Positions 8,708 to 25,641 of a stretch of 39,478 nucleotides of DNA are shown in pieces. Numbering within the stretch: position 1 is the stretch's first letter; the number at the start of each line of letters is the position of its first letter. The notes under the pieces are model-generated. The model made no database searches. It saw nothing but the letters and a program-made list of their open reading frames with translations, and was not told where the DNA came from. The stretch comes from an uncultured Candidatus Saccharimonadales bacterium (lineage in GTDB: Bacteria; Patescibacteriota; Saccharimonadia; UBA4664; DATIHN01). The position numbers and the translations under genes were made by a program. The stretch spans positions 13,854 through 53,331 of the forward strand of contig CAYYRL010000001.1 in the NCBI GenBank assembly GCA_964474165.1, read 5' to 3'.

Positions 8708-9222
8708 ATCCGATTCGATCAATCCTGATCGTAATTGCCGTGGTCTGGTTGCAGTTGGCCTTCTTGCCGGTAGTAGGCCCCTGGGGCGTGGTGCCCAACT
8801 TGGCATTAGTGGCTGTGATTCTGATGGCCACCCGCCTGCCTTTATCATCAACCTTGATGATGGCCGTTGCCATCGGACTGCTATTAGACATTGGTAGCGG
8901 CAGTGATTTTGGCTTGCGGACTGCCTTCTACCCGTTACTGGCACTAATTACAGCCTCGCTAAGACAGTACGGCAGCGATTTAGATAACTTAAGTTTATTA
9001 TCAAGTGTGGTGGTGGCAGCCACGGTGTTATTTAACCTGGTAATTTTAACCAACTTAGCTCTGGCACGAGCTAGCTTGCCACTGCGCTACATTGGCATCC
9101 ACGTTTTAGTTGAGGCCGGACTTAACTTACTGCTACTTTTGCCGCTGCGCAGTATGTCGAAACGCTGGCTCAGTGGCCGCGGCGGCGAGCCGCTAGTAGC
9201 ACTCAAGGGGCGCCGTGGCTAA
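8704..9222 (+). CDS. mreD: Rod-shape-determining protein MreD (polytopic membrane)
   Basis: 172-aa all-hydrophobic ORF in the canonical position between mreC and PBP2. The call rests mainly on context. Confidence 0.65.
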   Translation: MNPIRSILIVIAVVWLQLAFLPVVGPWGVVPNLALVAVILMATRLPLSSTLMMAVAIGLLLDIGSGSDFGLRTAFYPLLALITASLRQYGSDLDNLSLLSSVVVAATVLFNLVILTNLALARASLPLRYIGIHVLVEAGLNLLLLLPLRSMSKRWLSGRGGEPLVALKGRRG

Positions 9223-11844: not shown

Positions 11845-11869
11845 AAACCCGCTTCCGAGCGGGCTTTTG
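11845..11869 (+). terminator. Rho-independent terminator after greA
   Basis: aaaaa-cccgct-tccg-agcggg-cttttg; the A-tract and T-tract flank a 6-bp GC stem. Confidence 0.7.
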
Positions 11870-11874
11870 CTATC

Positions 11875-11883
11875 TGATACAAT
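11875..11883 (+). promoter_or_regulatory. Extended -10 box placed for a leaderless lysS mRNA
   Basis: TGaTACAAT. ATG 11891 lies 7 nt downstream, the in-frame ATG 11888 is only 4 nt away, and there is no SD. Confidence 0.45.
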
Positions 11884-11890
11884 AACCATG

Positions 11891-13450
11891 ATGACAGCTG
11901 ACAAAAGCAAATATTGGCTCGACCAAGCCGTGGCAGAAATTCAGCAAGCCCAGCCTGAGGGCGAAATTATTGTCTCAAGTGGTCATTCGCCATCCGGCAA
12001 TTACCACTTCGGGCTGCTGCGCGAATTTCTGATTGCATCAGCCATTGCCAGCCAGCTGCGAGCCCAGGGCTGTGCGGCCAAACACATCGACTTCGTTGAT
12101 GACTTCGACGTGCTGCGGAAGGTGCCTGTCAATGTTTCGGCTGAATGGGAGCAGCATCTAGGCAAGCCCTTGTATCTAGTGCCAGATCCTTTCGGTGACT
12201 GCCACGAGAGCTATGGTGACCATTTCCTAGCTGGTCTCTATGGGCCGCTCGAAGCCCTGGGTGTGGAGTTTGAATCCCTGCGCGCGCATCAATACTACCT
12301 GCAAGGCAAAATGGCCGAGTCAATTGAGAAAAGTTTGACCGGGCTGGATGAAGCTAGGACGGTCATTACTGAGGTTAGTCAGCGCCAGCTGCCAGATGAC
12401 TGGTCACCGGTTCAAATTTTGAGTGACAACAACGACCTGCGCGAGTGGCAATTCACTGGTTGGGATCAGATTAAGCAGGTTGTTAAGTACAAAGCCGCTA
12501 ACGGCGTAACTGGTGAAGTATCTTATGTTGATGGCCGGGTAAAGTTGGACTGGCGCTTGGATTGGCCGGCCCGCTGGGCCCTATTTAAAGTTGGTGTTGA
12601 ACCCTTCGGCCGCGATCATGCCTCCAAGGGAGGTTCTTATGATACTGGTAAGGTCCTGGTTGATAAGATTTTTGGTGGCCAGGCGCCGTATCCAGTACCG
12701 TATGATTTTGTGAATCTGGCTGGTCAAACCAAGAAGATGAGTAAATCGGCCGGCAACATTTTGACGCCGGCCGACATTTTGGAAATTATGCCGCCGGAGA
12801 TCGTGCGCTATTATTTCATCAAAGCCCGGCCGGCCAAGCTGTTAGTCTTTGATCCTGGCATCGGTCTGTTTAATCTAATCGATGAATTTTCAGGTGTTCA
12901 AGAAGCAATCCGAAAGAGCGAACCGACTGAATACCAAGAAGCTTTTGAATTCGCGACGGCAAACGTCGATCAAAAAGTCATCTCACCGGTCCGCTTCAAT
13001 CATCTGGTAACTGTGTTTCAAACCGCTCACCGCGACGCCGGCCAAGCTATTGAAATCCTCAAATCTCAACCGGAGTACGATTTTATTGATTGGAAGACTG
13101 AAACTGAGATTATCAGGCGTGAACTAGACTTGGTGGCTAGTTGGCTGGATAAGTACGCTCCAGATGAGCTGAAGTTTGAGGTTCAGGACCAGCTACCTAC
13201 AATTGACCTCAGCGACCAACAATCGCAATTTCTGGCCACTCTGGCCGATAAGCTTGAGGCGACCAAAGCTCCCGATGCCCAGACCATGCACAATCTGATT
13301 TATGAAGCTAAGGGCGAGCTTAGTCCAGCCGCCGCCTTTCAGGCTCTGTACCGAGTGATTATAGGTGGCGACAAAGGGCCGCGGGCGGGCTGGTTCCTAG
13401 CTAGCTTGGATCAGGATTGGCTGATCAAACGATTACGGCAACAGTCTTGA
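11891..13450 (+). CDS. lysS: Lysyl-tRNA synthetase, class I type
   Basis: Class I motifs HSPSGNYHFG (HIGH-like) and KMSKS (KKMSKSAGN). The overall length and layout fit class I LysRS. The start is ambiguous (11888 or 11891; the track opens at 11867, inside the greA terminator). Confidence 0.85.
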   Translation: MTADKSKYWLDQAVAEIQQAQPEGEIIVSSGHSPSGNYHFGLLREFLIASAIASQLRAQGCAAKHIDFVDDFDVLRKVPVNVSAEWEQHLGKPLYLVPDPFGDCHESYGDHFLAGLYGPLEALGVEFESLRAHQYYLQGKMAESIEKSLTGLDEARTVITEVSQRQLPDDWSPVQILSDNNDLREWQFTGWDQIKQVVKYKAANGVTGEVSYVDGRVKLDWRLDWPARWALFKVGVEPFGRDHASKGGSYDTGKVLVDKIFGGQAPYPVPYDFVNLAGQTKKMSKSAGNILTPADILEIMPPEIVRYYFIKARPAKLLVFDPGIGLFNLIDEFSGVQEAIRKSEPTEYQEAFEFATANVDQKVISPVRFNHLVTVFQTAHRDAGQAIEILKSQPEYDFIDWKTETEIIRRELDLVASWLDKYAPDELKFEVQDQLPTIDLSDQQSQFLATLADKLEATKAPDAQTMHNLIYEAKGELSPAAAFQALYRVIIGGDKGPRAGWFLASLDQDWLIKRLRQQS

Positions 13451-13490: not shown

Positions 13491-14768
13491 ATGATCGATA
13501 TTAAACACCTCCGCGAACACCCAGACGATTACCAAACATCGGCCGACCGGCGCGGACTCAAAATCGACATCAACCAAATTGCCGACCTCGACAATCAGCG
13601 GACCAAGTTGCTATCGGAAGTTGAAGGTCAGCGGGCTAAGCTCAACGTCAAAGATAAACCGACACCGGAGCAGTTGAAAGAATTGCAAGCGGCAAAGGCT
13701 GAACTTGAGAAGTCTGAGAAACAGCTAAAAACAATTGAGAATGATCTAAACGACAAGCTAAAGACAGTGCCGAATCTGCTATTAGATGACGTGCCAGTTG
13801 GCAAAGACGACACTGAAAATAAGGTACTGCGCAAGGAAGGGGAGCAGCCAAAGTTTGATTTCCAGCCCAAAGAGCACTGGCAGCTGGGGGCTGAGCTCGG
13901 AGTTTTGGAGCTGGAGAGGGCAGCCGCAGTGGCTGGCTCGCGGTTTGCCTACCTCAAAGGTGGTCTGGCTAAGCTCCAGTTTGCACTAATTAGCTTTGTT
14001 ATTAATGAGCTAACTTCAGAAGATACGATTGCCAAGATTGTTCAAGAGTCTGGTCTCAGGGTCAGCGCCAAGCCGTTTACACTTGTTGTGCCGCCGGCCA
14101 TGATTCGCAGTGAGGTTTTGGACAAGATGGCCCGGCTGGAGCCAAAAGAGGATCGATATCAAATAGCCGATGAAGATTTGTACCTATCGGGAAGCGCCGA
14201 ACACACCCTTGGACCTCTGCATATGAATGAAACCCTGAGCGAATCAGATCTGCCGATTCGTTATCTGGGATATGCAACGGCTTTTCGCCGTGAGGCGGGC
14301 AGTTATGGCAAGGATGTGCGCGGCATATTACGCCAGCACCAGTTCGATAAGCTGGAGATGGAGTCGTTTACATCGGCTGACGATAGTCTCGATGAACAAA
14401 ACTTTTTGGTGGCAGTTCAAGAGCACTTGCTGCGCCAGCTGAAGTTGCCATATCAAGTAGTCGCCATTTGCAGCGGCGACATGGGTGATCCTGATGCCAG
14501 GCAGATTGATATTGAGACCTGGATGCCCGGCCAAAATAAGTACCGTGAGACTCATACAGCTGATCTTATGACAGATTACCAATCTCGGCGTCTGGGCACT
14601 CGGGTGCGGCGTCATAATGGCGAGGTTGACCTGGCACATATGAATGATGGTACGGCCGCCGCCATTGGGCGTTTACTGATAGCGATTATGGAAAACTACC
14701 AGACCAGTGAGGGCAGGGTAGAAATTCCCGAGGTTTTGCAAACATTTTATGGAGCTACCCAATTATGA
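13491..14768 (+). CDS. serS: Seryl-tRNA synthetase
   Basis: N-terminal coiled-coil arm and class II core (FRREAGSYGKDVRGILRQHQFDKLE; TAAAIGRLLIAIMENYQ). Confidence 0.95.
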   Translation: MIDIKHLREHPDDYQTSADRRGLKIDINQIADLDNQRTKLLSEVEGQRAKLNVKDKPTPEQLKELQAAKAELEKSEKQLKTIENDLNDKLKTVPNLLLDDVPVGKDDTENKVLRKEGEQPKFDFQPKEHWQLGAELGVLELERAAAVAGSRFAYLKGGLAKLQFALISFVINELTSEDTIAKIVQESGLRVSAKPFTLVVPPAMIRSEVLDKMARLEPKEDRYQIADEDLYLSGSAEHTLGPLHMNETLSESDLPIRYLGYATAFRREAGSYGKDVRGILRQHQFDKLEMESFTSADDSLDEQNFLVAVQEHLLRQLKLPYQVVAICSGDMGDPDARQIDIETWMPGQNKYRETHTADLMTDYQSRRLGTRVRRHNGEVDLAHMNDGTAAAIGRLLIAIMENYQTSEGRVEIPEVLQTFYGATQL

Positions 14769-15185: not shown

Positions 15186-17861
15186 ATGGCCACTAATAAA
15201 TTGATTAATACACTATTGGGTGATCCCAACGGCCGCGAGTTGAAACGGTTGCGGGGACGGGTTGAGAACATTAATGCGGCCGAAGCCGCAGCCAAAAAGT
15301 TATCCGACAAGGGCCTGCGTGATCGCACGGCTGAACTGAAGAAGTTGGTGCAGGAGGGCAAGAGTCTGGAAGAGATTTTGCCTGAAGCCTTCGCCATCGT
15401 GCGCGAGGCTGCCAGCCGCACGCTGGGTCAGCGTCACTTCGATGTCCAACTGATGGGTGGGGTGGCTCTGCACGAAGGTAAGATCGCCGAAATGCGCACC
15501 GGTGAAGGCAAGACTTTGGTGGCAACCGCACCGCTGTTTCTAAATGCCCTGGCTGGCAAAGGTGTGCACCTAGTAACGGTTAACGATTACTTGGCTAGAC
15601 TGCATGCTGGCTGGATGGGCCAGGTTTATCACAGTTTGGGCTTATCAACCGGTGTCATTGTCAGCGACCAAGGGAATCCGATCGGACTAGTTTATGACCC
15701 TGAGTTTGATTCCAAAGAACACGTCGATGATCGCTTAAATCACCTGCGTCCAGTATCGCGCCAGGAAGCCTATCTGGCCGACATCACCTATGGCACCAAT
15801 AATGAATTTGGCTTCGATTATCTGCGCGACAATATGGTGGATGATGCCGGCAAGATGGTGCAGCGGCCACTGAACTACGCCATTGTCGACGAAGTTGACT
15901 CCATCCTGATTGATGAGGCCCGGACGCCGCTGATCATTTCGGCGCCGGCCGAGGAGAGCACTGACAAATATTACCAGTTTGCCAAAATTGCTCGGAGCTT
16001 AAAGTCCGAAGAACATTACAGCGTCGATGAGAAAATGCGGGCTGTGAGCATGAATGATGATGGCATCGCGGCTGTCGAAAAGATCCTGGGGGTTGATAAT
16101 GTTTATGAGGCCGGCCGGATTGACGATGTTCACCACATCGAGCAGGCATTGAAGGCCGAAGCCATCTTTAAGCGTGACCGCGACTACGTGGTGCGCGAAG
16201 GGGAAGTCATCATTGTTGACGAGTTCACCGGCCGCCTAATGCACGGCCGCCGGTATAGTGAAGGTTTGCACCAAGCTATTGAGGCCAAGGAAGGTGTTCA
16301 GATCCAACAGGAGTCATTGACGCTGGCCACTATTACTTTCCAGAACTATTTCCGGCTGTACGACAAGCTGGCCGGTATGACCGGTACGGCTGCTACCGAG
16401 GCTGAGGAGTTTGGCAAGATCTATCAGCTGGAAGTCACAACCATCCCCACGCATCGTGACATGATCCGCGATGATATGAGCGATAAGATTTATAAGACTG
16501 AGATTGGCAAGTTTAGAGCCGTTGTCGCCAGCGTCAGGGAGTGTCACGACAAGGGGCAGCCAGTCCTATTGGGTACAGTTTCCATCGAGAAAAACGAGAT
16601 TCTTAGTCAGCTGCTAGATGAGGCCAAAGTGCCGCACCGAATCTTGAACGCTAAAAATAACGAAGAGGAAGCTCAGATTATTGCCGATGCCGGCCACAAA
16701 GGCGCCGTCACCCTAGCAACCAACATTGCTGGGCGCGGCACCGACATTATGCTGGAGCCGGGTGTAAGTGAATTAGGCGGCCTGCATGTCATTGGTACCG
16801 AGCGCCATGAATCCAGGCGGATTGATAACCAGCTGCGCGGCCGCAGTGGTCGTCAGGGTGACCCCGGCTCCAGTCAGTTCTATGTGTCACTTGAAGATGA
16901 CCTGATGCGCATCTTTGGTGGCGAGCGGATTGCTGGGATGATGACCAGCCTGGGCGTCGATGAAGACACGCCGATTGAAAACCGCATTGTGTCTCGCTCA
17001 ATAGAAAGCGCCCAGAAAAAAGTCGAAGGTCATAACTTTGATATTCGTAAGCAACTAGTCGAGTACGATGACGTCATGAACCGCCACCGAGAGGTAATTT
17101 ATGCTAAGCGCCGGGCAGCCCTGACCAATGCCAACCTCCGGCCCGAAATTGAGCGCATGCTTAGTGAAGAGTTTGAAGCCGTGCTGACGGCCCATACCGA
17201 TGTTCGCACCGATGTTGTCGATGAAGACAAAGTCCTTGAAACCATCGGCGCGATGCTGCCGCTGGGTCAGGAGACAGTTAGTAAATTACACAAAGCTCAT
17301 CGCGGCGAGTGGCTGGACATTCTCAATAATGTCAGTCACAAACATTACGACGAGCGGGAACAAACCTTTAGACCAGAAGGCATGCGCATTATTGAGAAGA
17401 TCACTTTTCTGCGCATAGTCGATGGACTATGGATAGAGCACCTCGAGGCTATGGATGGCCTGCGCGAAGGCATTGGCCTCAGAGCCATTGGTCAGCGCGA
17501 GCCCCTAGTGGAATACAAGCGCGAAGGCTTCAAACTGTTTAGCCAGTTACTTAGCTTGCTCGAACACGAAATCGCTGCCACCATTTTCAAGGTCACCATC
17601 CATGCCCACCAGCCCCATGAGCACGACGAACATGGTTTGCCGATGGCGCCTGTGGAAACCGCGCTGACCAAGGCTGCCGAAGCAGCTTCAACCAATGCCA
17701 GTACCGATGAGCCAGTCAAAAGCAAACCCAAGCGCAAAGCTGATAGCCAAAAAGTTGGCCGCAATGATCCTTGCCCCTGCGGCAGCGGCCTTAAGTATAA
17801 GAAGTGCGGCATGATTGACTCGCCCGAACATCAGCAGCGCATGGCTGCTAGCGCCAAATAA
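15186..17861 (+). CDS. secA: Preprotein translocase ATPase SecA
   Basis: 891 aa with Walker A MRTGEGKTLV, the DEVDSILIDEARTPLIIS motif and a C-terminal zinc motif CPCGSGLKYKKCG. SD GGAG lies 5 nt upstream. Confidence 0.97.
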   Translation: MATNKLINTLLGDPNGRELKRLRGRVENINAAEAAAKKLSDKGLRDRTAELKKLVQEGKSLEEILPEAFAIVREAASRTLGQRHFDVQLMGGVALHEGKIAEMRTGEGKTLVATAPLFLNALAGKGVHLVTVNDYLARLHAGWMGQVYHSLGLSTGVIVSDQGNPIGLVYDPEFDSKEHVDDRLNHLRPVSRQEAYLADITYGTNNEFGFDYLRDNMVDDAGKMVQRPLNYAIVDEVDSILIDEARTPLIISAPAEESTDKYYQFAKIARSLKSEEHYSVDEKMRAVSMNDDGIAAVEKILGVDNVYEAGRIDDVHHIEQALKAEAIFKRDRDYVVREGEVIIVDEFTGRLMHGRRYSEGLHQAIEAKEGVQIQQESLTLATITFQNYFRLYDKLAGMTGTAATEAEEFGKIYQLEVTTIPTHRDMIRDDMSDKIYKTEIGKFRAVVASVRECHDKGQPVLLGTVSIEKNEILSQLLDEAKVPHRILNAKNNEEEAQIIADAGHKGAVTLATNIAGRGTDIMLEPGVSELGGLHVIGTERHESRRIDNQLRGRSGRQGDPGSSQFYVSLEDDLMRIFGGERIAGMMTSLGVDEDTPIENRIVSRSIESAQKKVEGHNFDIRKQLVEYDDVMNRHREVIYAKRRAALTNANLRPEIERMLSEEFEAVLTAHTDVRTDVVDEDKVLETIGAMLPLGQETVSKLHKAHRGEWLDILNNVSHKHYDEREQTFRPEGMRIIEKITFLRIVDGLWIEHLEAMDGLREGIGLRAIGQREPLVEYKREGFKLFSQLLSLLEHEIAATIFKVTIHAHQPHEHDEHGLPMAPVETALTKAAEAASTNASTDEPVKSKPKRKADSQKVGRNDPCPCGSGLKYKKCGMIDSPEHQQRMAASAK

Positions 17862-17862
17862 C

Positions 17863-17871
17863 TGTTATCAT
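17863..17871 (+). promoter_or_regulatory. Extended -10 box placed for a leaderless murD mRNA
   Basis: TGtTATCAT lies immediately after the secA stop, followed by 7 nt and ATG 17879; no SD. Confidence 0.4.
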
Positions 17872-17878
17872 ATTTTTA

Positions 17879-19201
17879 ATGAAAGTTGCGATTCTCGGTT
17901 ATGGTGTTGAGGGGCGAGAGGCTTATATCTGGTGGGGAAAGAAGAATGGTCACGACTGTACCATTTTTGATGAAAATCCAGACCTTGAAGTTCCAGAAGG
18001 GGTAAAACTGGTATCAGGTTCAGACTGGAAACTTGATGGATATGACCTGTTGGTTAGGTCTCCAGGAATTCGCCCAGATCGCTTACCTGAGGGGGCCAAT
18101 GTTACTTCAGTCATGAAAGAATTTATGGCCAAATGCCCAGCTCCTATAATTGGAGTCACGGGCACCAAGGGGAAGGGTACAACTTGTTCGCTTATATTCT
18201 ATATGCTAAGGGAAGCTGGCAAATGTCCCCATATCGGTGGCAATATTGGTTATCCGCCGCTATTGTTCCTGGAAGAAGTCTGGCCCACTGACTATGTGGT
18301 ACTGGAGTTATCAAGTTTCCAACTGATGGATTTAACCCAGAGTCCCCAGGTGGCAGTTTGTCTGATGATTGTGCCAGAACACTTGAATTGGCACCCAGGA
18401 ATGGGGGAATATACCGAAGCTAAGGCCAATATCTTCAAATTCCAGTCAAAAACTGATAAGGCGGTTTTTAATGCCAAAAATCAATACTCTAAGCAAATCG
18501 CCCAGCTCTCGAAGGGAGCCAAGATTCCTTATCTGGACAAGGGAGGGGCATGGGTAGACGGTGAGGTTATAAGGTACGGCAAGCAGGAGGTTTGTAAAGT
18601 TTCTGATGTCGCCCTCCTGGGTCCCCACAACCTCGAGAATATTTGTGCAGCCATAACCGCTGTTTGGGATATAATTGGTGATCCAGAGCCCATCAGAAAG
18701 GCCATAAGCGGTTTCACAGGACTGGAGCATCGTTTGGAGTTGGTGGTGGAAACTGACGGCGTGAGGTATTACAATGACTCATTTTCGACTACACCGGAAA
18801 CGGCCATTGCCGCCATCCAGGCTTTTAATGAGCCAAAGGTGTTAATTCTGGGCGGATCAGATAAGGGATCTGATTATACCGCTCTAGCGGCTGAGGTGGC
18901 CGATGCCAATATCAAACAGGTGATTCTGATCGGCGATAGCGGCAACTCTAAGCACAGCTCGGCCTCGCCTAAGCTGGCCGAGTCCTTAAAGGTCCAGGGC
19001 GTTAAGAACGTGAAGTCCCTGGTTCGCAGTGGCGGTGCCACCATGGACGAGGTAGTCGAGCAGGCAGCTAAGCTAGCCAAAGCTGGCGACGTGGTCCTAC
19101 TAAGTCCAGCCTGTGCCAGCTTTGATATGTTTACAGGTTACAAGCAGCGCGGCGAACAGTTTAGGCAAGCTGTTGCAAAACTCGCTGCAATTGAGCAATA
19201 A
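17879..19201 (+). CDS. murD: UDP-N-acetylmuramoyl-L-alanine--D-glutamate ligase
   Basis: Mur ligase P-loop GVTGTKGKGTT, and MurD-like N-terminal Rossmann domain and C-terminal domain. Confidence 0.9.
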   Translation: MKVAILGYGVEGREAYIWWGKKNGHDCTIFDENPDLEVPEGVKLVSGSDWKLDGYDLLVRSPGIRPDRLPEGANVTSVMKEFMAKCPAPIIGVTGTKGKGTTCSLIFYMLREAGKCPHIGGNIGYPPLLFLEEVWPTDYVVLELSSFQLMDLTQSPQVAVCLMIVPEHLNWHPGMGEYTEAKANIFKFQSKTDKAVFNAKNQYSKQIAQLSKGAKIPYLDKGGAWVDGEVIRYGKQEVCKVSDVALLGPHNLENICAAITAVWDIIGDPEPIRKAISGFTGLEHRLELVVETDGVRYYNDSFSTTPETAIAAIQAFNEPKVLILGGSDKGSDYTALAAEVADANIKQVILIGDSGNSKHSSASPKLAESLKVQGVKNVKSLVRSGGATMDEVVEQAAKLAKAGDVVLLSPACASFDMFTGYKQRGEQFRQAVAKLAAIEQ

Positions 19202-19817
19202 CCGGCTCCTCCGGTTGAAGAACCAGCGCCCGATCACCAGCAATAGCCCTGATAAGCTCTTCAATCCAGTGATAGTGGGTGCAACCCAGAACTATGACAT
19301 CGGCTTTTTGATCTAGAGCGGCTTCAAGCCGCTGTTTGATGTGACCTTGGTCAATTTGGTTATTTTCTATCATCATCGCCCAATCACTACAGTCAGGCTC
19401 TAATACTAAGACACCCCCAGCATAAGCCTGTTTCAGTTGTTGGTAGCGCTGGCTCCTTAAGGTATTCGGAGTCGCACAGACGGCAATTACCCCGGTTTTG
19501 GTTAGGTCAGCTGCCGGCTTAACCATTGGTTCCATACCTACCAGCGGCACCGACAACTGGGGTCGCAATTGGTCAATCAAGTTGGTTGTGACAGTGTTGC
19601 AGGCGATTACAATTATCTGGCAGCCCTGGGCTTCAAGTTCTAAAAGTTTTGGTAAAACCCAGTTTACAATATGATCTAACGGTTTATTACCATAGGGTAA
19701 ATGCTTTTTGTCAGCAATATAAACCACCCGGGTTCCAGGTAGAGCTGCCTTAATAGCACTGACAACGGCTTCACCGCCAACACCGGAGTCAAAAACGCCA
19801 ATAGTAGGACTAGTCAT
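19161..19817 (-). CDS. murI: Glutamate racemase
   Basis: GVFDSGVGG, IACNT and LGCTHY motifs with the two catalytic Cys. ATG 19817 is preferred because TACAAT lies 6 nt upstream; the track start is 19835. The 3' end overlaps murD by 41 nt. Confidence 0.9.
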   Translation of the reverse strand: MTSPTIGVFDSGVGGEAVVSAIKAALPGTRVVYIADKKHLPYGNKPLDHIVNWVLPKLLELEAQGCQIIVIACNTVTTNLIDQLRPQLSVPLVGMEPMVKPAADLTKTGVIAVCATPNTLRSQRYQQLKQAYAGGVLVLEPDCSDWAMMIENNQIDQGHIKQRLEAALDQKADVIVLGCTHYHWIEELIRAIAGDRALVLQPEEPVIAQLQRVLQQLA

Positions 19818-19823
19818 GCTGAT

Positions 19824-19829
19824 ATTGTA
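19824..19829 (-). promoter_or_regulatory. -10 box placed for a leaderless murI mRNA
   Basis: The minus strand reads TACAAT, then 6 nt (atcagc), then ATG (19817). Confidence 0.4.
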
Positions 19830-19906
19830 GCCCATAACAAAAAATAGACAGCGTTGTGATAACTAACAATTAAGCTAGTTATGTTTATAAATTACCACAA
19901 AAAACA

Positions 19907-19935
19907 TTGACAAATTTGTCATATAGTGATATGTT
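19907..19935 (+). promoter_or_regulatory. Near-consensus rightward promoter overlapped by a perfect 14-bp palindrome
   Basis: TTGACA (19907-19912), a 17-nt spacer, then TATGTT (19930-19935). The palindrome tgacaaatttgtca (19908-19921) covers the -35 box and may be an operator. The promoter points into the inverted-repeat-bounded island. Confidence 0.5.
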
Positions 19936-20019
19936 GGGTTATCACCCTAATCAGGGCGTTATCTGTGAGGCGGCTTTATAGCACGTTTACGGGTTCGCCG
20001 TGGCTAGGCGGCCCTTGAT

Positions 20020-20045
20020 AGCTGAATAGTCAAAGGTCTATTAAG
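20020..20045. repeat. Left arm of the inverted repeat bounding the GC-rich island
   Basis: agctgaatagtcaaag-gtct-attaag. The 16-nt and 6-nt blocks are exact reverse complements of 23213-23228 and 23204-23209. The arm overlaps the local hairpin aggtct-atta-agacct (20034-20049). Confidence 0.85.
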
Positions 20046-20301
20046 ACCTAAACCAAAAACTTAAATGCTCTTTGTGGGCAAGGTTCTGCATGCTGCTGTC
20101 TGCCGCCCAGGCAGCGCATGTAGGCCCTTGCTCATTAGAGCAATACAGTTTGTGCATCTCCGCGTGGGGCTGTACAACCGAGATCTCGCTCGCCCAATGG
20201 GCGAATGGCATGCAAATGCTAAACGCCCGGCGAGAGGGCGACATCACCGGAAACAGTCCAGACCCATCTTCGGACGGGTCTACAACACACTGGAGAGCTG
20301 T

Positions 20302-21135
20302 ATGGGCAAACGCAAGATAACTGCCCATCTGGCTGAAGAACTCGGTACCATTCCTGAAACCCTGTATGAAATGACGGGGAAGAAGGACGGCCAGTTCATT
20401 GACGAAGAGAAGCTGAAAGAGCTCTTCGCTCACTACAGCCACGATGAGGCAGAAGTCAGGCGCGACCCAATCCAGGACTTTCAGACCTGGTGGGTCGATC
20501 ACGTCAAGTTCGTCGGCAAGTTCAGGCGTCTGCGTCGGTACCGCAAGCGAGTTTTGAGCCGGGGCCAGATGGTTCCGATCATGCTCGTGAAGTACCGCAC
20601 ACCGACCGGCCATGAGCGGCTGATGCAGGAGAAGACGGTGGCGACCCGCATGAAAGTGGGGTTGTTGCCATACTACCTCTTGGGCAAGGACTTGGAGGAA
20701 GCGGGAATCAACTTGATTTCCGAATTCCCCAAGGCCCCAACCCTCGAGACCACCTGTTTCGTCTGTGACGAGCCGCTGTTTCGGCGGCAAGGCGACTTGT
20801 ATTCGCACTTGCGCGATGTACTGGAAGCGGTCTTGACCGGCAAGGTCGAGCCCGCCAGAGTCAACTTCAAACGCCAGCACCAAGAGTGTTGGCAGGCAAC
20901 CAAAATCCGGGAACGGATTGAGGGGGCAGAAGCAGAAGTCATCGCTGAGCTGCGAATGAGTGGTGGTAAGAGAAATCCGGTGGCCGAGGCGCAAGCCCTG
21001 GCCGCTGAAAAGATTCGCTTGCAAAAGCGAGTCGATGGTTTCTTGGCCCACCTGCGTCGCATCAAGGTGGTTCCCGCCAGCCGCATTCAACTGTTCGAGC
21101 AGCAATTTGCTGCCGCTCTCGAAGGGATCAAGTAA
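20302..21135 (+). CDS. Island ORF-A: basic hypothetical protein (277 aa) with an N-terminal helix-turn-helix-like segment
   Basis: GGAG lies 6 nt upstream of ATG 20302. ITAHLAEELGTIPETLYEM resembles an HTH. The C-terminal part is a charged, coiled-coil-like region. The frame is open from 20065, but that extension has no SD and is low-complexity. Confidence 0.6.
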   Translation: MGKRKITAHLAEELGTIPETLYEMTGKKDGQFIDEEKLKELFAHYSHDEAEVRRDPIQDFQTWWVDHVKFVGKFRRLRRYRKRVLSRGQMVPIMLVKYRTPTGHERLMQEKTVATRMKVGLLPYYLLGKDLEEAGINLISEFPKAPTLETTCFVCDEPLFRRQGDLYSHLRDVLEAVLTGKVEPARVNFKRQHQECWQATKIRERIEGAEAEVIAELRMSGGKRNPVAEAQALAAEKIRLQKRVDGFLAHLRRIKVVPASRIQLFEQQFAAALEGIK

Positions 21136-21136
21136 C

Positions 21137-21679
21137 ATGGCCGGACCGATTTTCGACCCGACGGGCGGGGCCGGTGGGGGAGACCTCATCGACGAAGCCG
21201 TCATCGTGGACGAAGACGAAGCGGGCCTCGAGCCCGTAGACGACTACACCGACGACGACCCGATCCTGGCCCGAGGCCGGGACCTGCTCCGGCAGGACGA
21301 GCGCAAGACCAAGGACCTGCCGGCTCGTTTGCGCGGACTGCAGGCCTACATGGAGGACAACAAGCTTTCCAGTGCGGACCTCGCTGAGGTTCTGGCTGGT
21401 GAGACGGTGGAAGAGAAGGTCGTGCTTCCCGGCATCCCCAAGGACGCCGAGATCATCGACTACACGGAAACCTACGCGGTGGCGATGGACGCGAATCGTC
21501 CACGTCTCTACCACAAGGGTGCCACCACCTACATCGGAACCGAGACGCGGTGGTCAAGTCGAGCCGCTTTCGAGCGTGACTACGACAAGGCCGACCACAT
21601 TCTCGACGAGCTGGCCGAGCGCAAGCGCGGCAAGAGCAAGGGTGGCGGCTCGGGACTGCTCAGCCGGCTCCGGCGCTAG
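21137..21679 (+). CDS. Island ORF-B: hypothetical protein (180 aa) with an acidic N-terminus and a basic tail
   Basis: The ATG lies 1 nt after the ORF-A stop (taacatg). The N-terminus is DLIDEAVIVDEDEAGLEPVDDYTDDD and the C-terminus is KRGKSKGGGSGLLSRLRR. GC3-rich codons. Confidence 0.6.
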   Translation: MAGPIFDPTGGAGGGDLIDEAVIVDEDEAGLEPVDDYTDDDPILARGRDLLRQDERKTKDLPARLRGLQAYMEDNKLSSADLAEVLAGETVEEKVVLPGIPKDAEIIDYTETYAVAMDANRPRLYHKGATTYIGTETRWSSRAAFERDYDKADHILDELAERKRGKSKGGGSGLLSRLRR

Positions 21680-21687
21680 CCGGAGCC
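21666..21687 (+). other. Perfect 9-bp GC-rich stem-loop spanning the ORF-B stop codon
   Basis: ggctccggc-gcta-gccggagcc. There is no T-tract. It lies 25 nt upstream of the ORF-C ATG. Confidence 0.6.
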
Positions 21688-21712
21688 CAGACCCCTCGAA
21701 GGGAGGGAAGCA

Positions 21713-23110
21713 ATGAACTGGTTCCTTACCCTGATGTTAGTCGGTCTGGTGGCGGGAGTTTTCCTTGCCCTCTGGTTGACTGGCTTCCGGGTCATTGCAC
21801 CGCTGGCAGCCATCTTCGTGGCTGTGCTCTACCTGCACTGGTTCGGACACAGCATGAGCTGGTTCGGACGCGAACCGTGGGCGCCTTGGTGGCTGGTGGT
21901 GGTTTCGTTGGTCCTACTGATCATCGTCACCATCATCACGCTGCTGGCACCCGCGACTTGGACCGGACTCGGATTACTGACGGTGATCGCCATGGTCATC
22001 ATCGGCGTCTTGCTTCTGGCTTCGACGACCAACGATGACAAGGATCACCCGCAGAAGACTGCCACGGATGGCACCACCACGACGACCACAACCACCCAGC
22101 CCAAGAACACCACCAAGGTGCCAACGCTCAAGGGCTACGAGCTGCACTACTACTCCTCGGACCCCGGTGTGCCGGGCGGGTACTTCGGTCCCGCCTGTGT
22201 ACCCCACGGAAACGCGGACAAGTGCAAGCGAGACATCCTGGAGCGCGTCAAGCACGACCCGATGCTCTGCTCGGTCATGCTGCGCAATTTCAACGTGTTG
22301 AAGGGAGTTCCCGACAAGCCGGTGCGCATGCCCGGTGAGTCGGCGGCCGACTATGCCGGCCGGTTGAACGACTGGAACACTCAGGTGGAGAACGCCCGAA
22401 AAGCCACGGCCAGCAAGCTCGCGAAGAGCGCAGCACGCCGTAAGCAGTGTGCGGCCAAGGTCGCATTCGGGTTCGATACCATGCAGGGTTTCCACATTGA
22501 GGCCCTGCACGGACGGTTCTACACCGAGTTCACCGACGACAACCACAACGTCACCCAGACGTCGAAGGAAATGGATCCGTCCAAGAACTTCGCCATCGTG
22601 GCTACGACGCCCGATGGTGTGGTGCACTACATCAAGGTGGACTGCGGCCATCAGACGGTTTCGAAGGCGCCGATCCCTGGGGTTCCACCCCAGACGCCGC
22701 CTCCACCGCCGCCACCACCCAAGAAGCCACCGCCGCCTCCGCCGCCGCCGGTGCACCACAAGTGTCAGGACCACCCGTGGCCTGAGATCTGTGGGACGCC
22801 GAACAGCGGTCCGGAGCAGCAAGGTGTGCAGGAGCACAAGCAGAAGCCGACTCCGGGGTACAAGAGAGGCGACTACGAGCAGACGGTTCAGGCTCAAAAG
22901 CCACCGGCTGACAAGTACAAGCCAAATCCCCAGTACGGCAGTAACCCACCGGAGGGTCAGCACTCTCCACCGGGTGGCTCCGGCAATCCCTCGGATCCCA
23001 CGGGAACCAACGGCGGGGTCGAAAACCCCAAGCCCAATCCCAATCCGGGTCCACCGGTGTCAACACCACCGCCCAACGGCTGTTGGGACGATCCCACTTT
23101 GTGTGGGTAA
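21713..23110 (+). CDS. Island ORF-C: polytopic membrane protein (465 aa) with Thr8 linker, Cys-containing domain, P8-KK-P8 tract and P/G/N-rich tail
   Basis: GGAGG lies 6 nt upstream of the ATG. Four hydrophobic segments occupy the first ~105 aa. TTTTTTTT follows, and PPPPPPPPKKPPPPPPPP is encoded at nt 22697-22750. All nine Cys lie after the TM region. The protein ends ...NGCWDDPTLCG. Confidence 0.7.
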   Translation: MNWFLTLMLVGLVAGVFLALWLTGFRVIAPLAAIFVAVLYLHWFGHSMSWFGREPWAPWWLVVVSLVLLIIVTIITLLAPATWTGLGLLTVIAMVIIGVLLLASTTNDDKDHPQKTATDGTTTTTTTTQPKNTTKVPTLKGYELHYYSSDPGVPGGYFGPACVPHGNADKCKRDILERVKHDPMLCSVMLRNFNVLKGVPDKPVRMPGESAADYAGRLNDWNTQVENARKATASKLAKSAARRKQCAAKVAFGFDTMQGFHIEALHGRFYTEFTDDNHNVTQTSKEMDPSKNFAIVATTPDGVVHYIKVDCGHQTVSKAPIPGVPPQTPPPPPPPPKKPPPPPPPPVHHKCQDHPWPEICGTPNSGPEQQGVQEHKQKPTPGYKRGDYEQTVQAQKPPADKYKPNPQYGSNPPEGQHSPPGGSGNPSDPTGTNGGVENPKPNPNPGPPVSTPPPNGCWDDPTLCG

Positions 23111-23154
23111 CTGACACCAAGCTTTCACTCGATTTCGAGTGGGGGCGCGACGGG

Positions 23155-23192
23155 GGGACCGACCTTGAGCTCACAGAGCTCGGGTCGGCCCC
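23155..23192 (+). terminator. Long GC-rich stem-loop just inside the right inverted-repeat arm (candidate island terminator)
   Basis: gggaccgacc..gagct-cacag-agctc..ggtcggcccc, about 14 pairs with one mismatch. No T-tract follows, which is a high-GC-organism style. A smaller hairpin cactc-gatttc-gagtg lies at 23126-23141. Confidence 0.45.
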
Positions 23193-23203
23193 TCGCCGCC
23201 ACA

Positions 23204-23228
23204 CTTAATGATCTTTGACTATTCAGCT
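23204..23228. repeat. Right arm of the inverted repeat bounding the GC-rich island
   Basis: cttaat-gat-ctttgactattcagct is the reverse complement of the left arm, except for the 3-4 nt core. Confidence 0.85.
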
Positions 23229-23248
23229 GCCGGGCGCGGAAGCGTTCC

Positions 23249-23277
23249 TTGACAGTATTCACCCGTTTGCCATTAAA
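23249..23277 (+). promoter_or_regulatory. Candidate promoter of the LPXTG surface-protein gene
   Basis: TTGACA (23249-23254), a 16-17 nt spacer, then a weak -10 CATTAA/ATTAAA (23271-23277). Confidence 0.35.
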
Positions 23278-23325
23278 CAATTAAGTTCTTTTCACGGCTC
23301 TTTATGGGCCAAGAAGGAGATATAT

Positions 23326-24459
23326 ATGTTCAGGAAACTGATCATGGCACTGGCTGTTGTGGGTATTACTGCCATGCCTTTCGCTGTTACAGCCGCTAAC
23401 GCTGTAACTATTGAGAGTACCACTCAGGTCGCTAATCAGACCGCTGGTGATACCTCTTACAAAGATAGCGTCAACGCCAAAGTCGACGACGTGGTTAAGG
23501 TCCAAGTTTGGTTCCACAACCGCGAAAACGCCGATAGTGGTAAAACCGCTAACAATCTAAACGTAAAAGTAAACATTCCAACTACTCCAGGTACGAAGCA
23601 GACTATTACCGGTACTGTTGGGGCTGCAAACTCCAACACCGTTACCGATACTGCTACTGTTAACCTATCACTGGCTAACGCTCACCTAGAGTACATCCCT
23701 GGCACCGCTTACTGGCGCCACAACGCTGGATCTAACTCCAACGTTAACTATGTCACCACCAAAATCAGCGACGCTGTCACTGGTGCTAATGGTGTCCTAG
23801 TGGGTCCTAACTTGCAGCCCTGTTTCAACTTTGAGTCGACGGTTACCGTCATGGCTCGAGTTAAAGCCAATGGTGTAAGCATCACCAAGCAAGTCCGAAA
23901 AGTTGGCGATTCAGCCTGGGTTACCCAGATGAACGCTAACCCCGGTGACACCATTCAATACATGATTACCTTCAAAAACGAAGGTAACACCGTTTTGAAC
24001 AACGTCATCGTCGGCGACAACCTGCCTCCCCACGAAACTTACGTGGCTGGCACTACCATGCTTAAGAACGGTAACAACCCCAGTGGCGTAAAGATCGCCA
24101 ACGATAACATCGCCAATGGCGGTATCAACGTTGGTAGCTACAATCCTGGTGCCGTCGGCTATGTCATGTTTAACGTCAAAATTGATGCTAACATCGACAA
24201 TGGCTGTCACAACCTGCAAAACGTGGGTATTGTTCGTCCGGAAGGGATGAACGAGTTCTTCAACACAGCCACAGTTAAAGTGTGTGTTGAAACTCCTAAG
24301 ACCCCTCCGACTGAAACTCCGACCCAACCTCTACCTCAAACGGGTGGTGAGACTGCTCTAGCTGGTGTGGCTGGCACAGGTGTACTTGGTTACGCCGTCA
24401 ACGCCTACCGCAAGAGTAAGCGCTCTGTCGTTGATGCACTTAAGAACATTAAGCGCTAA
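23326..24459 (+). CDS. Sortase-anchored (LPXTG-type) surface protein with DUF11-like repeat domain
   Basis: Strong SD AAGGAG lies 7 nt upstream of ATG 23326. Signal peptide MFRKLIMALAVVGITAMPFAVTAANA. The DUF11-like pattern is GDTIQYMITFKNEGNTVLNNVIVGDNLP. LPQTG (nt 24331-24345) is followed by a hydrophobic helix and the tail RKSKR. Confidence 0.85.
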   Translation: MFRKLIMALAVVGITAMPFAVTAANAVTIESTTQVANQTAGDTSYKDSVNAKVDDVVKVQVWFHNRENADSGKTANNLNVKVNIPTTPGTKQTITGTVGAANSNTVTDTATVNLSLANAHLEYIPGTAYWRHNAGSNSNVNYVTTKISDAVTGANGVLVGPNLQPCFNFESTVTVMARVKANGVSITKQVRKVGDSAWVTQMNANPGDTIQYMITFKNEGNTVLNNVIVGDNLPPHETYVAGTTMLKNGNNPSGVKIANDNIANGGINVGSYNPGAVGYVMFNVKIDANIDNGCHNLQNVGIVRPEGMNEFFNTATVKVCVETPKTPPTETPTQPLPQTGGETALAGVAGTGVLGYAVNAYRKSKRSVVDALKNIKR

Positions 24460-24490
24460 ACACACAAACTGAACGCTTCAGTGTGTAACA

Positions 24491-24517
24491 AAAAAGACCC
24501 TCCCGGGTCTTTTTTGT
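24491..24517. terminator. Bidirectional-looking rho-independent terminator
   Basis: aaaaagaccc-tccc-gggtctttttt. It is preceded by a second hairpin, acac-(aa)-actgaa-cgc-ttcagt-gtgt (24462-24486). Confidence 0.75.
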
Positions 24518-24534
24518 TTCCAGCTGTCTCCAGG

Positions 24535-24540
24535 TATAAT
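24535..24540 (+). promoter_or_regulatory. -10 box placed for a leaderless prfB mRNA
   Basis: TATAAT, then 6 nt (acggtt), then ATG 24547; no SD. Confidence 0.45.
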
Positions 24541-24546
24541 ACGGTT

Positions 24547-25641
24547 ATGTCAGAATCATCAGACATCTTCAAACGGGCCGAAGTGCTCCAAGGCAAAATC
24601 ACCGATGCCATGGAGCGGCTTGGCGTGTCCGCAGATGAAACCAAGCTGGCTGAGCTAGAACAAACGGCAGCTGAGCCAGACTTTTGGAGTAATTCGGCTC
24701 AGGCGACGGTTACCACTCAGGAGCTGGCTGCCCTGAAGCGTCACGTCGAAAGTTGGCAAGGACTATTAAACGAAGTTAACGATTTGGTGGAGCTGCTGCA
24801 GCTAGACGATGAATCAGGGACTGGGGAGTTAGCCGACCATTTAGGGAGACTGGAGGCTGACTACGGCGCCCGGGAGCTAGAACTGAAGCTGTCAGGTCAT
24901 TACGATAAACACTCGGCCATACTGTCGATTTTTGCTGGTACCGGCGGCACTGATGCCCAGGATTGGGCGGCCATGTTAGAGCGCATGTATCTAAGGTACT
25001 GTGAGCGAGCCGGCTTTAATACCGAAATCCTCGATCGCTCAGCCGGCGAAGAAGCCGGTATCAAAAGCGTAACTATTGAAGTTAATGGTCCGTTTGCCTT
25101 CGGCTATTTACAGAGCGAGAAGGGTGTTCACCGGCTGGTGCGCCTCAGCCCGTTTAACGCCGATAACCTGCGCCAAACTTCCTTTGCCCTAGTAGATGTG
25201 ATTCCGCAAATTGATTTGCCGGCAGCGGTGGAAATTGACCCCAAAGACCTGCGAATCGATGTTTTTCGTAGCGGTGGCCACGGTGGCCAAAGCGTTAATA
25301 CTACGGATTCAGCAGTGCGTCTGACTCACATCCCAACAGGCACGGTAGTTAGCATCCAAAATGAGCGCTCGCAGCTGCAGAACAAAGACAAGGCTATGGC
25401 GGTGCTGCGCTCACGACTAGCGCTATTAATGGCCGAGCAGCACCAAGAGCAGCTATCTGAGATTAGGGGACAGGTTAGCAGTCCCGACTGGGGCCAGCAG
25501 ATCCGGTCCTACGTCTTGCACCCTTATACTAAGGTCAAGGATCACCGCACCAAGGCTGAAACTAGCGACACCCAGGCCGTCTTGGACGGTAAGCTGGATC
25601 AATTTATTGAGGCCTATTTAACCAGCCAGGTTGGCAAATAA
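24547..25641 (+). CDS. prfB: Peptide chain release factor 2 (single uninterrupted frame)
   Basis: SPF tripeptide (RLSPFNA) and GGQ (SGGHGGQSVNTTDSAVR). The track ORF from 24481 would run through the upstream terminator, so ATG 24547 is preferred. Confidence 0.92.
   Translation: MSESSDIFKRAEVLQGKITDAMERLGVSADETKLAELEQTAAEPDFWSNSAQATVTTQELAALKRHVESWQGLLNEVNDLVELLQLDDESGTGELADHLGRLEADYGARELELKLSGHYDKHSAILSIFAGTGGTDAQDWAAMLERMYLRYCERAGFNTEILDRSAGEEAGIKSVTIEVNGPFAFGYLQSEKGVHRLVRLSPFNADNLRQTSFALVDVIPQIDLPAAVEIDPKDLRIDVFRSGGHGGQSVNTTDSAVRLTHIPTGTVVSIQNERSQLQNKDKAMAVLRSRLALLMAEQHQEQLSEIRGQVSSPDWGQQIRSYVLHPYTKVKDHRTKAETSDTQAVLDGKLDQFIEAYLTSQVGK

Follow-up and report, generated by a model that had tools for sequence, protein, structure and literature searches.

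Results

A conserved three-gene cassette bracketed by complementary arms

The locus described here is a three-gene cassette in the genome of an uncultured Candidatus Saccharimonadales bacterium, where it lies between murI and a gene encoding an LPXTG-anchored surface protein and is bracketed by an inverted repeat. It was analyzed within a 39,478-nucleotide stretch of DNA (contig CAYYRL010000001.1, positions 13,854 to 53,331; hereafter the window) that has housekeeping content throughout: rpsB, frr, mreBCD, serS, hpf, secA, murD, murI, the cassette, the LPXTG gene, prfB, ftsEX, and the genes for a CHAP protein and an S41 protease. A first-pass annotation of this DNA had correctly assigned murI and the LPXTG gene, the product of which carries an LPQTGG motif and DUF11/CLIPPER domains, and had placed three co-oriented open reading frames (ORF1 to ORF3) between the arms of the repeat, with neither a recombinase nor a target-site duplication; each of these points holds for the 39-kb window. 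It had gone on to read the cassette as horizontally acquired cargo from a high-GC donor, possibly mobile or invertible. As a recent acquisition, that reading does not survive: the cassette sits at the same locus in three related lineages, its leader is conserved, no outside source was found, and it has a single orientation. What emerges is a clade-specific operon of orphan, hypervariable envelope genes, the transcript of which appears to be closed by a long-range helix between the arms and to be structured throughout (Table 1).

The evidence is computational and draws on the four lineages in which the arms can be aligned and the full layout is present: the window, L002 (NCBI DAIDKY010000030.1), L004/L005 (a 289-kb contig of the Joint Genome Institute, JGI) and L012 (an 872-kb JGI contig). 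In the three relatives, three unannotated genes, the ORF3 homologue being third, are followed by a DUF11/CLIPPER surface-protein gene and then by prfB. The layout common to them comprises, in order, a promoter, a structured leader, the left arm, the three genes, a GC hairpin, the right arm, the LPXTG/CLIPPER gene and prfB. The wider synteny of L004 is that of the window, serS-hpf-secA-X-cassette-surface gene-prfB-ftsEX-CHAP-S41, with X being an M16 peptidase gene in L004 and murD-murI in the window. Comparisons of release factor 2 (RF2), the product of prfB, among the window, the L002/L004 pair and L012 give identities of only 62-63%, and the arrangement is therefore older than a deep split; between L002 and L004, RF2 is 85% identical.

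The genomic context of ORF3 homologues was read for nine other family members, and 9/9 lie in the same gene context. An ORF3 homologue adjoins a downstream DUF11/CLIPPER surface-protein gene in all eight loci with a visible downstream side, which bears out the link to the neighboring surface protein that had been drawn at first pass. The orientation is one and the same in 5/5 assemblies, namely the window, a Logan contig, L002, L004/L005 and L012. Whether the cassette might be an assembly chimera had been raised early on; the independent Logan assembly of run SRR9179563 matches window positions 16478-22047 with one mismatch and crosses the left junction, which is therefore not chimeric, while the right junction, beyond the end of the Logan contig, is backed by the equal arrangement in L002, L004 and L012.

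No empty site was found, as all three relatives that share the surface gene-prfB synteny contain the cassette. The 39-kb window holds no tRNA or tmRNA gene and no mobility gene, and no recombinase or transposase domain was detected in its other ORFs of at least 120 amino acids (aa) that read as real genes. Relatives of the cassette proteins were absent from viral contigs and from phage and plasmid collections (a viral-contig scan, and tblastn against phages and plasmids). A scan of a genome collection returned L002, again, as the sole match; metagenome scans gave no match in a collection that probably lacks the JGI samples containing L004, L006 and L012. Judged by this synteny, the unit is chromosomal and vertically inherited within a small-genome clade, and is not a recent insertion. 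The first-pass annotation had considered that relatives might carry the same genes without repeats and with native codons; the genes are indeed present, and the repeat and the non-native codon usage are present with them.

An AT-rich relative, L010 (6001-9285 and 9554-10186; L011 is the same), has an ORF3 homologue that directly abuts a CLIPPER/PKD gene, and an IS200/IS605-type Y1 transposase gene lies just downstream. Neither bracket, leader hairpin, GC shift nor structure excess is seen there.

Table 1. Features of the cassette locus in the window. GC3, G+C content at third codon positions; z, folding z-score.
Feature	Coordinates	Strand	Remarks
Predicted sigma-70-type promoter: TTGACA, 17 nt, TG-extended TATGTT	19907..19935	+	10/12 positions; transcript start near 19942
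5′ leader domain, closed multi-helix region	19942..20012	+	RNAalifold, four lineages: closing helix with compensatory and G·U changes
Left strand of the putative long-range helix	20013..20045	+	contains the 16-mer 20020-20035; predicted to pair with 23204-23234
Local hairpin GGTC-TATTAA-GACC	20035..20048	+	competes with the inner part of the long-range helix
Long leader hairpin	20070..20148	+	conserved CCGCC loop (20103-20107), then GTAGGC; RNAalifold
Rest of the ~360-nt 5′ untranslated leader, to the ORF1 Shine-Dalgarno sequence	20149..20301	+	z -2.4 to -3.5
ORF1, 277 aa	20302..21135	+	GC3 0.705; no known family
ORF2, 180 aa	21137..21679	+	GC3 0.807; acidic N-terminus, basic C-terminus; no known family
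ORF3, 465 aa	21713..23110	+	GC3 0.773; N-terminal membrane helices, ~195-aa extracytoplasmic domain, proline-rich tail
Very stable GC-rich hairpin (core ~23153-23192)	23144..23199	+	two-strand fold; z -5.4; just inside the right arm
Right strand of the putative long-range helix	23204..23234	+	contains the 16-mer 23213-23228; homologous right arm also in L007
LPXTG (LPQTGG) surface protein, DUF11/CLIPPER-type domains	23326..24459	+	Pfam matches; constant cassette neighbor

The arms covary as a probable RNA helix

The 16-mer AGCTGAATAGTCAAAG at 20020-20035 is, as had been reported at first pass, the exact reverse complement of 23213-23228; including a short irregular core, the repeat extends to 25/26 nt. 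At up to three mismatches the 16-mer has two sites only in the 39-kb window, with a chance expectation of 0.25, and 3/100 shuffles gave at least two matches. Within these 39 kb it is not a common dispersed repeat of the repetitive extragenic palindromic (REP) type, a possibility that had been entertained, and the repeat taken alone is weakly beyond chance. An unrelated 20-nt inverted pair, 95% complementary, lies inside the PBP2 and serS genes (pair I8, 10739-10758 and 14460-14479) and is probably a product of chance; a repeat of this size is thus weak evidence by itself. We judge the bracket to be real because a homologous repeat brackets a homologous cassette in the three other lineages. In each of these the top-ranked inverted repeat is the cassette bracket, with 26, 27 and 25 nt enclosing 3.2, 3.7 and 4.1 kb in L002, L004 and L012, respectively, and 3.2 kb being enclosed in the window. 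A homologue of the right arm is also seen in L007, the contig of which is cut upstream. No target-site duplication was found at the flanks (CCCTTGAT on the left, GCCGGGCG on the right), and no direct repeats, whether as target-site duplications or as template/variable repeat pairs, were found.

The core of the repeat had been described as divergent. Its letters do differ, gtct on the left standing opposite gat (earlier quoted as atc) on the right; read as RNA, these nucleotides form a G·U, a U-A and a C-G pair with one bulged U. The pairing is therefore unbroken, and reaches outward to about 30 pairs between the two strands listed in Table 1.

Both arm regions of the four lineages were joined, aligned and folded with RNAalifold, which returned a single helix of 30 pairs with changes on both sides at 10 of them. 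The arm sequences differ between lineages and their complementarity is kept: 94.2% of the cells of the helix are paired, none of 500 column shuffles matched the observed pairing or covariation, and sliding the partner strand by 1-3 columns lowered the pairing to 26-44% of cells. The predicted energy of the arm duplex in the window is -53 kcal/mol, compared to -32 ± 4 kcal/mol with a shuffled partner; across the four lineages the duplex energies range from -41 to -53 kcal/mol, and those with a shuffled partner from -21 to -32 kcal/mol.

The cells that depart from Watson-Crick pairing comprise 9 G·U, 1 A·C at the helix end, and 6 others, mostly at one conserved irregular position. Transitions in a DNA repeat are expected to yield G·T and A·C mismatches equally often. 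The excess of G·U over A·C therefore points to pairing of the sense-strand RNA, suggestively, as the count of independent events is ~5 vs 1 (roughly p 0.1).

At the two-gene locus of L009 inverted pairs are visible, but their duplex energies, like that of the bracket at the two-gene locus of L006, are no better than those of shuffles, and these brackets were not counted as evidence. The L009 pairs are two and nested, of unrelated sequence (51-82 and 2232-2317), and flank the two-gene cassette; a 60-nt insertion interrupts the right strand. By eye, the arrangement of the window arms (16 + 3-4 + 6) is unlike dif consensus sequences (28 bp, 11-6-11, XerC/XerD). Xer-dependent modules, such as pdif modules and integrative mobile elements exploiting Xer (IMEX elements), are disfavored as candidates, as the RNA-type evidence from the arms speaks against them.

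A conserved predicted promoter and leader RNA

The promoter-like site listed in Table 1 is strong, is the only one within 19700-23500 and lies ~85 nt upstream of the left arm. Homologous sites, likewise matching at 10/12 positions, occupy the same relative position in L012 (3395-3423) and L004 (4642-4670), and the block AAAAA-CATTGACA at the promoter is conserved with L002. For the leader that would follow, RNAalifold gave a four-lineage consensus of 44 pairs, 17 of them compensatory. The 5′ leader domain also folds independently in the two-strand fold. The local hairpin has the same shape and another stem in each lineage, with GGGT/ACCC in L002, GGGTC/GACCC in L004 and AGATCGTT/AACGATCT in L012; it uses nucleotides of the inner long-range helix, and the two structures therefore compete. 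The long leader hairpin is recognizable even in the two-gene loci L006 and L009, and a covariance model built on it found one copy per locus, these two included, with none elsewhere in the window and none in L010. The sequence of the remaining leader, down to ORF1, is not conserved between lineages.

In the comparison of L002 with L004, the leader (5′ domain, left arm and long hairpin) is 86% identical, above prfB (77%), the M16 peptidase gene (66%) and the cassette genes (58-66%). Conservation extends outside the left arm, to the promoter and ~80 nt of leader; the conserved unit thus reaches past the repeat, unlike what is expected of a mobile element bounded by it. No match to Rfam 15 at gathering score was obtained for the window or for any of 7 related loci, and relaxing the threshold to E values of up to 10 over 19800-23400 returned only chance-level matches. 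By these comparisons, the predicted leader RNA is new, conserved, and absent from Rfam.

Excess predicted structure along the putative transcript

Predicted RNA structure was tested in non-overlapping 150-nt in-frame segments against permutations of their own codons, which keep codon usage and third-position periodicity. The mean z of the cassette and of its flanks is -2.06 and -0.61 in the window, -1.76 and -0.57 in L012, -1.36 and -0.36 in L002, and -1.80 and -0.40 in L004, with Mann-Whitney p values of 2e-4 to 1e-3 for cassette vs flank. Dinucleotide shuffles gave the same excess, which is seen in L004 as well, where cassette and host GC3 are equal. The sense strand has a greater excess than its antisense counterpart (paired Wilcoxon p 2e-4, n=84). 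It continues through the surface-protein gene, where z is -1.1 to -2.0 among the window, L002, L004, L012, L008 and L009 (-1.9 in the window), and it halts at prfB (z -0.8 to +0.6). In L010, which is AT-rich and has no bracket, the ORF3 homologue has a z of 0.06 and shows no excess.

In the window, L012 and L004, scans of the interval that separates the right arm from the surface-protein gene gave neither a promoter-like site nor, on the + strand, a terminator-like one; by these scans, the gene is probably co-transcribed with the cassette. Together with the structure excess in that gene, the scans are suggestive of a single long, structured transcript that begins with the leader and includes the surface-protein gene. 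The terminator-like hairpin noted at first pass inside the right arm is present as a GC-rich hairpin; it lacks a U-tract and is not scored as an intrinsic terminator. Equivalent GC hairpins of unrelated sequence are found in L002, L004, L007 and L012.

A bounded shift in codon choice

The G+C content is 0.58-0.64 over 20500-23000 and ~0.51 elsewhere in the window; at 100-nt resolution it rises from ~0.45 to 0.58-0.72 near 20100 and comes back down at 23200. The GC3 values of the three cassette genes (Table 1) lie 3.4-5.8 standard deviations over those of 33 host genes (0.563 ± 0.042, maximum 0.643). The sharply bounded compositional island with the repeat at its edges, which had first been counted by hand, is thus upheld upon computation. 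Codon positions one and two of the cassette are host-like, and the shift is therefore one in codon choice and not in amino-acid content.

The third-position composition of the cassette is near constant across lineages (A 0.05-0.12, C 0.35-0.46, G 0.35-0.38, T 0.12-0.17). In the flanking genes it is A 0.22, C 0.22, G 0.29 and T 0.27 for L012, and A 0.08, C 0.42, G 0.29 and T 0.21 for L004; host GC3 ranges across lineages from about 0.45 to 0.7. Compared with host translation genes, cassette codon choice is distant (r 0.53 against 0.89) and resembles the outcome of GC mutational pressure, with AAG at 0.90, TTC at 0.89, and NCG codons raised. We rejected the codon bias of highly expressed genes as an explanation, as the codon usage of rpsB, tsf, frr, greA and hpf is that of the host at large. 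Selection for RNA structure, with the shift as its side effect, is a weakened candidate as well: the surface-protein gene is structured without the shift, its GC3 of 0.53 being host-like.

Orphan proteins of the cassette

Searches with Pfam, PHROG and PADLOC returned nothing significant for ORF1-3 or for their counterparts in L002, L004 and L012. A homology search with ORF1 among 5.8 billion protein clusters returned the query alone. ORF1 shows weak, consistent homology, centered on a CxxC-EP-F motif, to the first genes of L004 (E 6e-5) and L012 (E 8e-5). In these homologues (4909-6123 in L004 and 3663-5339 in L012) the motif is part of a Cys/His cluster, CGH ... CxxC ... CxxC-EP-F; the window ORF1 (20302-21135) retains the last CxxC and has lost three of the cluster cysteines, and a metal-binding site may have decayed in the window copy. 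The N-terminus of ORF1 is helix-turn-helix-like by eye, without a match to family models, and the N-terminal regions are not conserved between lineages. A single-sequence structure model of ORF1 reached a predicted local distance difference test (pLDDT) score of 44 and was unusable. The position of ORF2 is kept in L002, L004 and L012, where significant sequence similarity is gone; the protein is probably disordered.

The ORF3 family has about 10 members among 1.84 billion representative proteins, and no ORF3 homologue was found outside this gene context in that set. A profile search with the 10-member alignment returned 3 proteins only, swamped by low-complexity words. The AlphaFold model of the extracytoplasmic domain (window 22112-22702), with a pLDDT of 89 and a predicted template modeling (pTM) score of 0.85, is a helical bundle packed on a six-stranded sheet. 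A Foldseek search with this model against PDB and BFVD gave nothing better than E 0.09 or a template modeling (TM) score of 0.2, and the modeled domain may represent a new fold limited to this clade. With its membrane helices and proline-rich tail, ORF3 probably resides in the envelope and acts together with the LPXTG protein. In L009, the cassette comprises two genes, for a 141-aa protein and an ORF3 homologue, with GC3 values of 0.95 and 0.77 vs 0.46 in the next gene.

Between L002 and L004 the first genes are unalignable by BLAST, ORF3 is 54% identical, and the surface proteins are 36% identical. By these comparisons, the rate of divergence in the cassette greatly exceeds that of its flanks. 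Recombination within the clade that frequently replaces alleles, perhaps joined by biased gene conversion, is a candidate cause. Antisense ORFs are also present in the cassette (20041-21204, 21974-22963 and 22632-23204, all on the - strand). Homologues or other support for them are absent, and they are best read as by-products of the high GC3 of the cassette.

The surface-protein gene and its neighbors

The surface protein of the window is 58% identical to that of L012 and 49% identical to that of L004. The surface proteins and RF2 give conflicting trees: the L002 surface protein (6991-8262) is nearest that of L007 (2372-3667; 50%), and the L004 protein (8543-9682) is nearest those of L012 (7795-8946) and the window (49-50%), with only 36% identity to that of its sister L002. 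This conflict suggests allelic replacement at the locus.

In the window, prfB (24481-25641) is one unbroken ORF, and its homologues in L002, L004 and L012 are also single ORFs; the programmed +1 frameshift that is common in bacterial prfB seems to be absent here. The true start is probably the ATG near 24547, because the alignment with L002 opens at residue 28. Upstream of prfB, the spacer that follows the surface-protein gene has 88% identity between L002 (8263-8370) and L004 (9683-9788), above both flanking genes, and may contain another conserved regulatory element; its equivalent in the window lies at ~24460-24546. Elsewhere in the window, the lysyl-tRNA synthetase encoded at 11867-13450 is of the class I type (PF01921), which is uncommon among bacteria. 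The near-megabase contig of L012 and the LPXTG and peptidoglycan genes agree with the Saccharibacteria-like host suggested at first pass.

Discussion

A model for the arms

Given the shared locus and layout, the repeat very likely has a conserved function within a chromosomal operon that is inherited vertically. As to how it works, we favor the arms pairing as an RNA helix over their being the edges of a recent mobile element, with a probability of roughly 0.6 from the comparative evidence. A mechanism can be sketched on this basis. A single long transcript would start at the 19907-19935 promoter and comprise the leader, the three genes, the GC hairpin and the right arm, probably running on into the surface-protein gene. 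The left arm would partly fold into its local hairpin before the right arm, 3 kb downstream, is made, and the leader could change shape once it has been. Pairing of the arms over ~30 bp would loop the three-gene segment out of the transcript and set the 5′ leader beside the surface-protein message, with the duplex most likely acting as a processing or clamping site. In one version ribonuclease III (RNase III) would cut the duplex and part the three-gene message from the surface-protein message; in another, the duplex would protect the message ends or set the relative stability of both messages. The assignment of RNase III as the effector is tentative and draws on analogy. The conserved layout, the covariation of arms and leader, the strand bias and the excess of predicted structure are observed; we infer, in this scheme, co-transcription with the surface-protein gene, cleavage by RNase III, and any regulatory consequence.

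Several observations weigh against the helix. Its chief weakness is the GC hairpin just upstream of the right arm, which could end transcription even without a U-tract; if it does, the arm helix cannot form in cis. That transcription crosses the right arm is a step that we infer. Only four independent lineages have alignable arms, and covariation between two protein-binding DNA sites would look similar. The G·U excess is suggestive and, at ~5 vs 1 events, not significant alone. The arm core GGATAGTCA/TGACTATCC is kept in primary sequence across lineages in both arms; a plain helix needs no such conservation, and the core therefore hints at recognition by a sequence-specific protein. At L009 and L006 the duplex energies of the brackets are indistinguishable from chance. 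The GC3 shift, finally, is outside the reach of an RNA model, as the surface-protein gene is structured without it, and the GC-rich third positions found in hosts of different composition are a puzzle that the helix has not explained.

Alternative explanations

An ancient or domesticated DNA element is the alternative that fares best, and we consider it unlikely. On this account the arms were the terminal inverted repeats of a non-autonomous, transposon-like cassette, or else the cassette entered the loop of a hairpin that already existed ahead of the surface-protein gene; either event would predate the split of the lineages, and the repeats would persist as DNA sites. A terminal inverted repeat of 25-30 bp exactly at the edges of a compositional island is what such an element would leave; it would also fit a core conserved in both arms across lineages, and a cassette that has a composition of its own in different hosts. 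Replacement or divergence of the cassette proteins, moreover, far outpaces change in the flanks, as in L002 and L004, whose first genes are unalignable despite 85% identity of RF2, and the surface-protein and RF2 trees conflict. Such an element, however, has left neither a target-site duplication nor, in 39 kb, a transposase or recombinase; it occurs once in the window, has kept its locus unchanged in four lineages, and has no phage, plasmid or viral relatives among those searched. The promoter and leader beyond the left arm are conserved along with the arm, and the G·U-biased mismatches, the bulged pairing that continues past the repeat, and the covarying local hairpin that competes with it are not what a DNA element would by itself explain.

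The arms could also be paired DNA operators, bound by a sequence-specific protein, such as ORF1, that loops or insulates the operon, and covarying to fit that protein. We regard this as improbable. The conservation of the core GGATAGTCA in both arms of all lineages is an observation that such operators would explain, and ORF1 itself offers a helix-turn-helix-like N-terminus, as judged by eye, and relatives with a Cys/His cluster, neither of which is supported by family models. Yet the N-terminal regions of ORF1 vary between lineages while the arm core stays the same, and the window ORF1 lacks three of the cluster cysteines. The right site would lie downstream of the operon, and there would be no role for the G·U bias, for pairing that is extended and imperfect, or for the hairpin that competes with it.

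An invertible segment, flipped as a phase-variation switch of 3.2 kb by an invertase encoded elsewhere, is very improbable. Known invertible segments of ~1-4 kb are flanked by inverted repeats of like size, and here a promoter lies outside the segment and a surface-protein gene next door; but all five assemblies show one orientation, no serine or tyrosine recombinase is encoded in the 39 kb, the flipped state would put no conserved gene behind the promoter, and the leader and arms behave as RNA. Recent import from a high-GC donor, such as an actinobacterial host, is scarcely tenable as the origin of the composition and is largely refuted by synteny: a GC3 3.4-5.8 standard deviations above host genes and a codon choice like high-GC mutational bias, unlike that of host translation genes (r 0.53 against 0.89), would fit it, whereas cassette, repeat and anomaly all occur at the same locus in relatives with 62-63% RF2 identity, the surface-protein and ORF3 identities roughly scale with host divergence, no homologue exists outside the gene context among the 1.84 billion representative proteins, and mobility genes are absent from the 39 kb.

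We also mention an extension of the helix model that we hold to be highly speculative. The segment could be an RNA entity in its own right, structured throughout and either excised or clamped by the helix, with its constant GC-rich codons reflecting where or how it is used; its translation in the high-GC actinobacterial host of an epibiont, or its delivery to that host, would be an example. Alternatively, an RNA-linked process might feed back on the DNA of precisely this segment. If true, this would give a common account of the helix, the excess of structure, the sharp limits of the composition shift and the orphan proteins beside a surface adhesin, and the feedback variant would also account for the extreme rate of divergence.

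Significance and comparison with known systems

If the arms pair in RNA, they would represent a new way for small-genome bacteria to organize or process a polycistronic message. The orphan, fast-evolving protein families, tied always to an isopeptide-type LPXTG-anchored surface protein, fit what one would expect of a module for host contact, or of an antigenic module, in a lineage of epibionts. A constant third-position composition bounded by the arms poses a testable puzzle as to what sets local base composition, for which expression level and recent transfer are insufficient answers. To our knowledge, no long-range stalk of the rRNA style has been described around a protein-coding operon; a literature search on RNase III long-range stalks in mRNA, LPXTG hypervariable loci and Saccharibacteria inverted repeats found nothing relevant.

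Among DNA elements, mobile insertion cassettes (e.g. MIC231 of Bacillus cereus) share with the present locus transposase-less passenger genes, inverted repeats of ~25 bp and a non-host composition. Unlike them, this cassette lacks a target-site duplication, occurs once in the 39-kb window, occupies a fixed locus in deeply diverged genomes, is conserved together with a promoter and leader outside the repeat, and has mismatches biased towards RNA wobble pairs. Invertible segments such as the Mu G segment, Salmonella hin and shufflons resemble it in their inverted repeats of 20-35 bp, in a length of up to 3-4 kb and in their proximity to surface-structure genes; here, in contrast, there is no invertase, one orientation is seen, the genes are complete and not alternative gene ends, and the outside promoter has no alternative target.

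Among RNAs, some positive-strand RNA viruses and RNA phages likewise combine a pervasive folding excess along a coding RNA of 3-4 kb with long-distance interactions and a structured 5′ leader. The present locus differs in being fixed on a bacterial chromosome and in encoding no recognizable RNA-dependent RNA polymerase or capsid protein. In the mRNA of hok-family toxins (plasmid R1), the 5′ region pairs with the 3′ end in a fold-back (fbi/tac), and an alternative local structure forms when the 3′ partner is absent, as proposed here for the left arm. That mRNA is ~400 nt long, monocistronic, and controlled by antisense RNA and 3′ trimming, whereas the span here is ~10 times longer, three genes are enclosed, and neither a toxin nor an antisense partner is evident.

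The stalks that flank 16S and 23S rRNA are RNase III entry sites. The helix proposed here differs from them in enclosing three protein genes, in an arm core that is conserved in primary sequence, in a competing local hairpin on its left strand, and in that its cleavage would be assumed by analogy. In both, the two sides of a long segment pair in a helix of ~25-30 bp with few bulges and wobbles that covaries between species, and the dimensions of the 23S stalk are close to the 3.2-4.1 kb enclosed by the arms.

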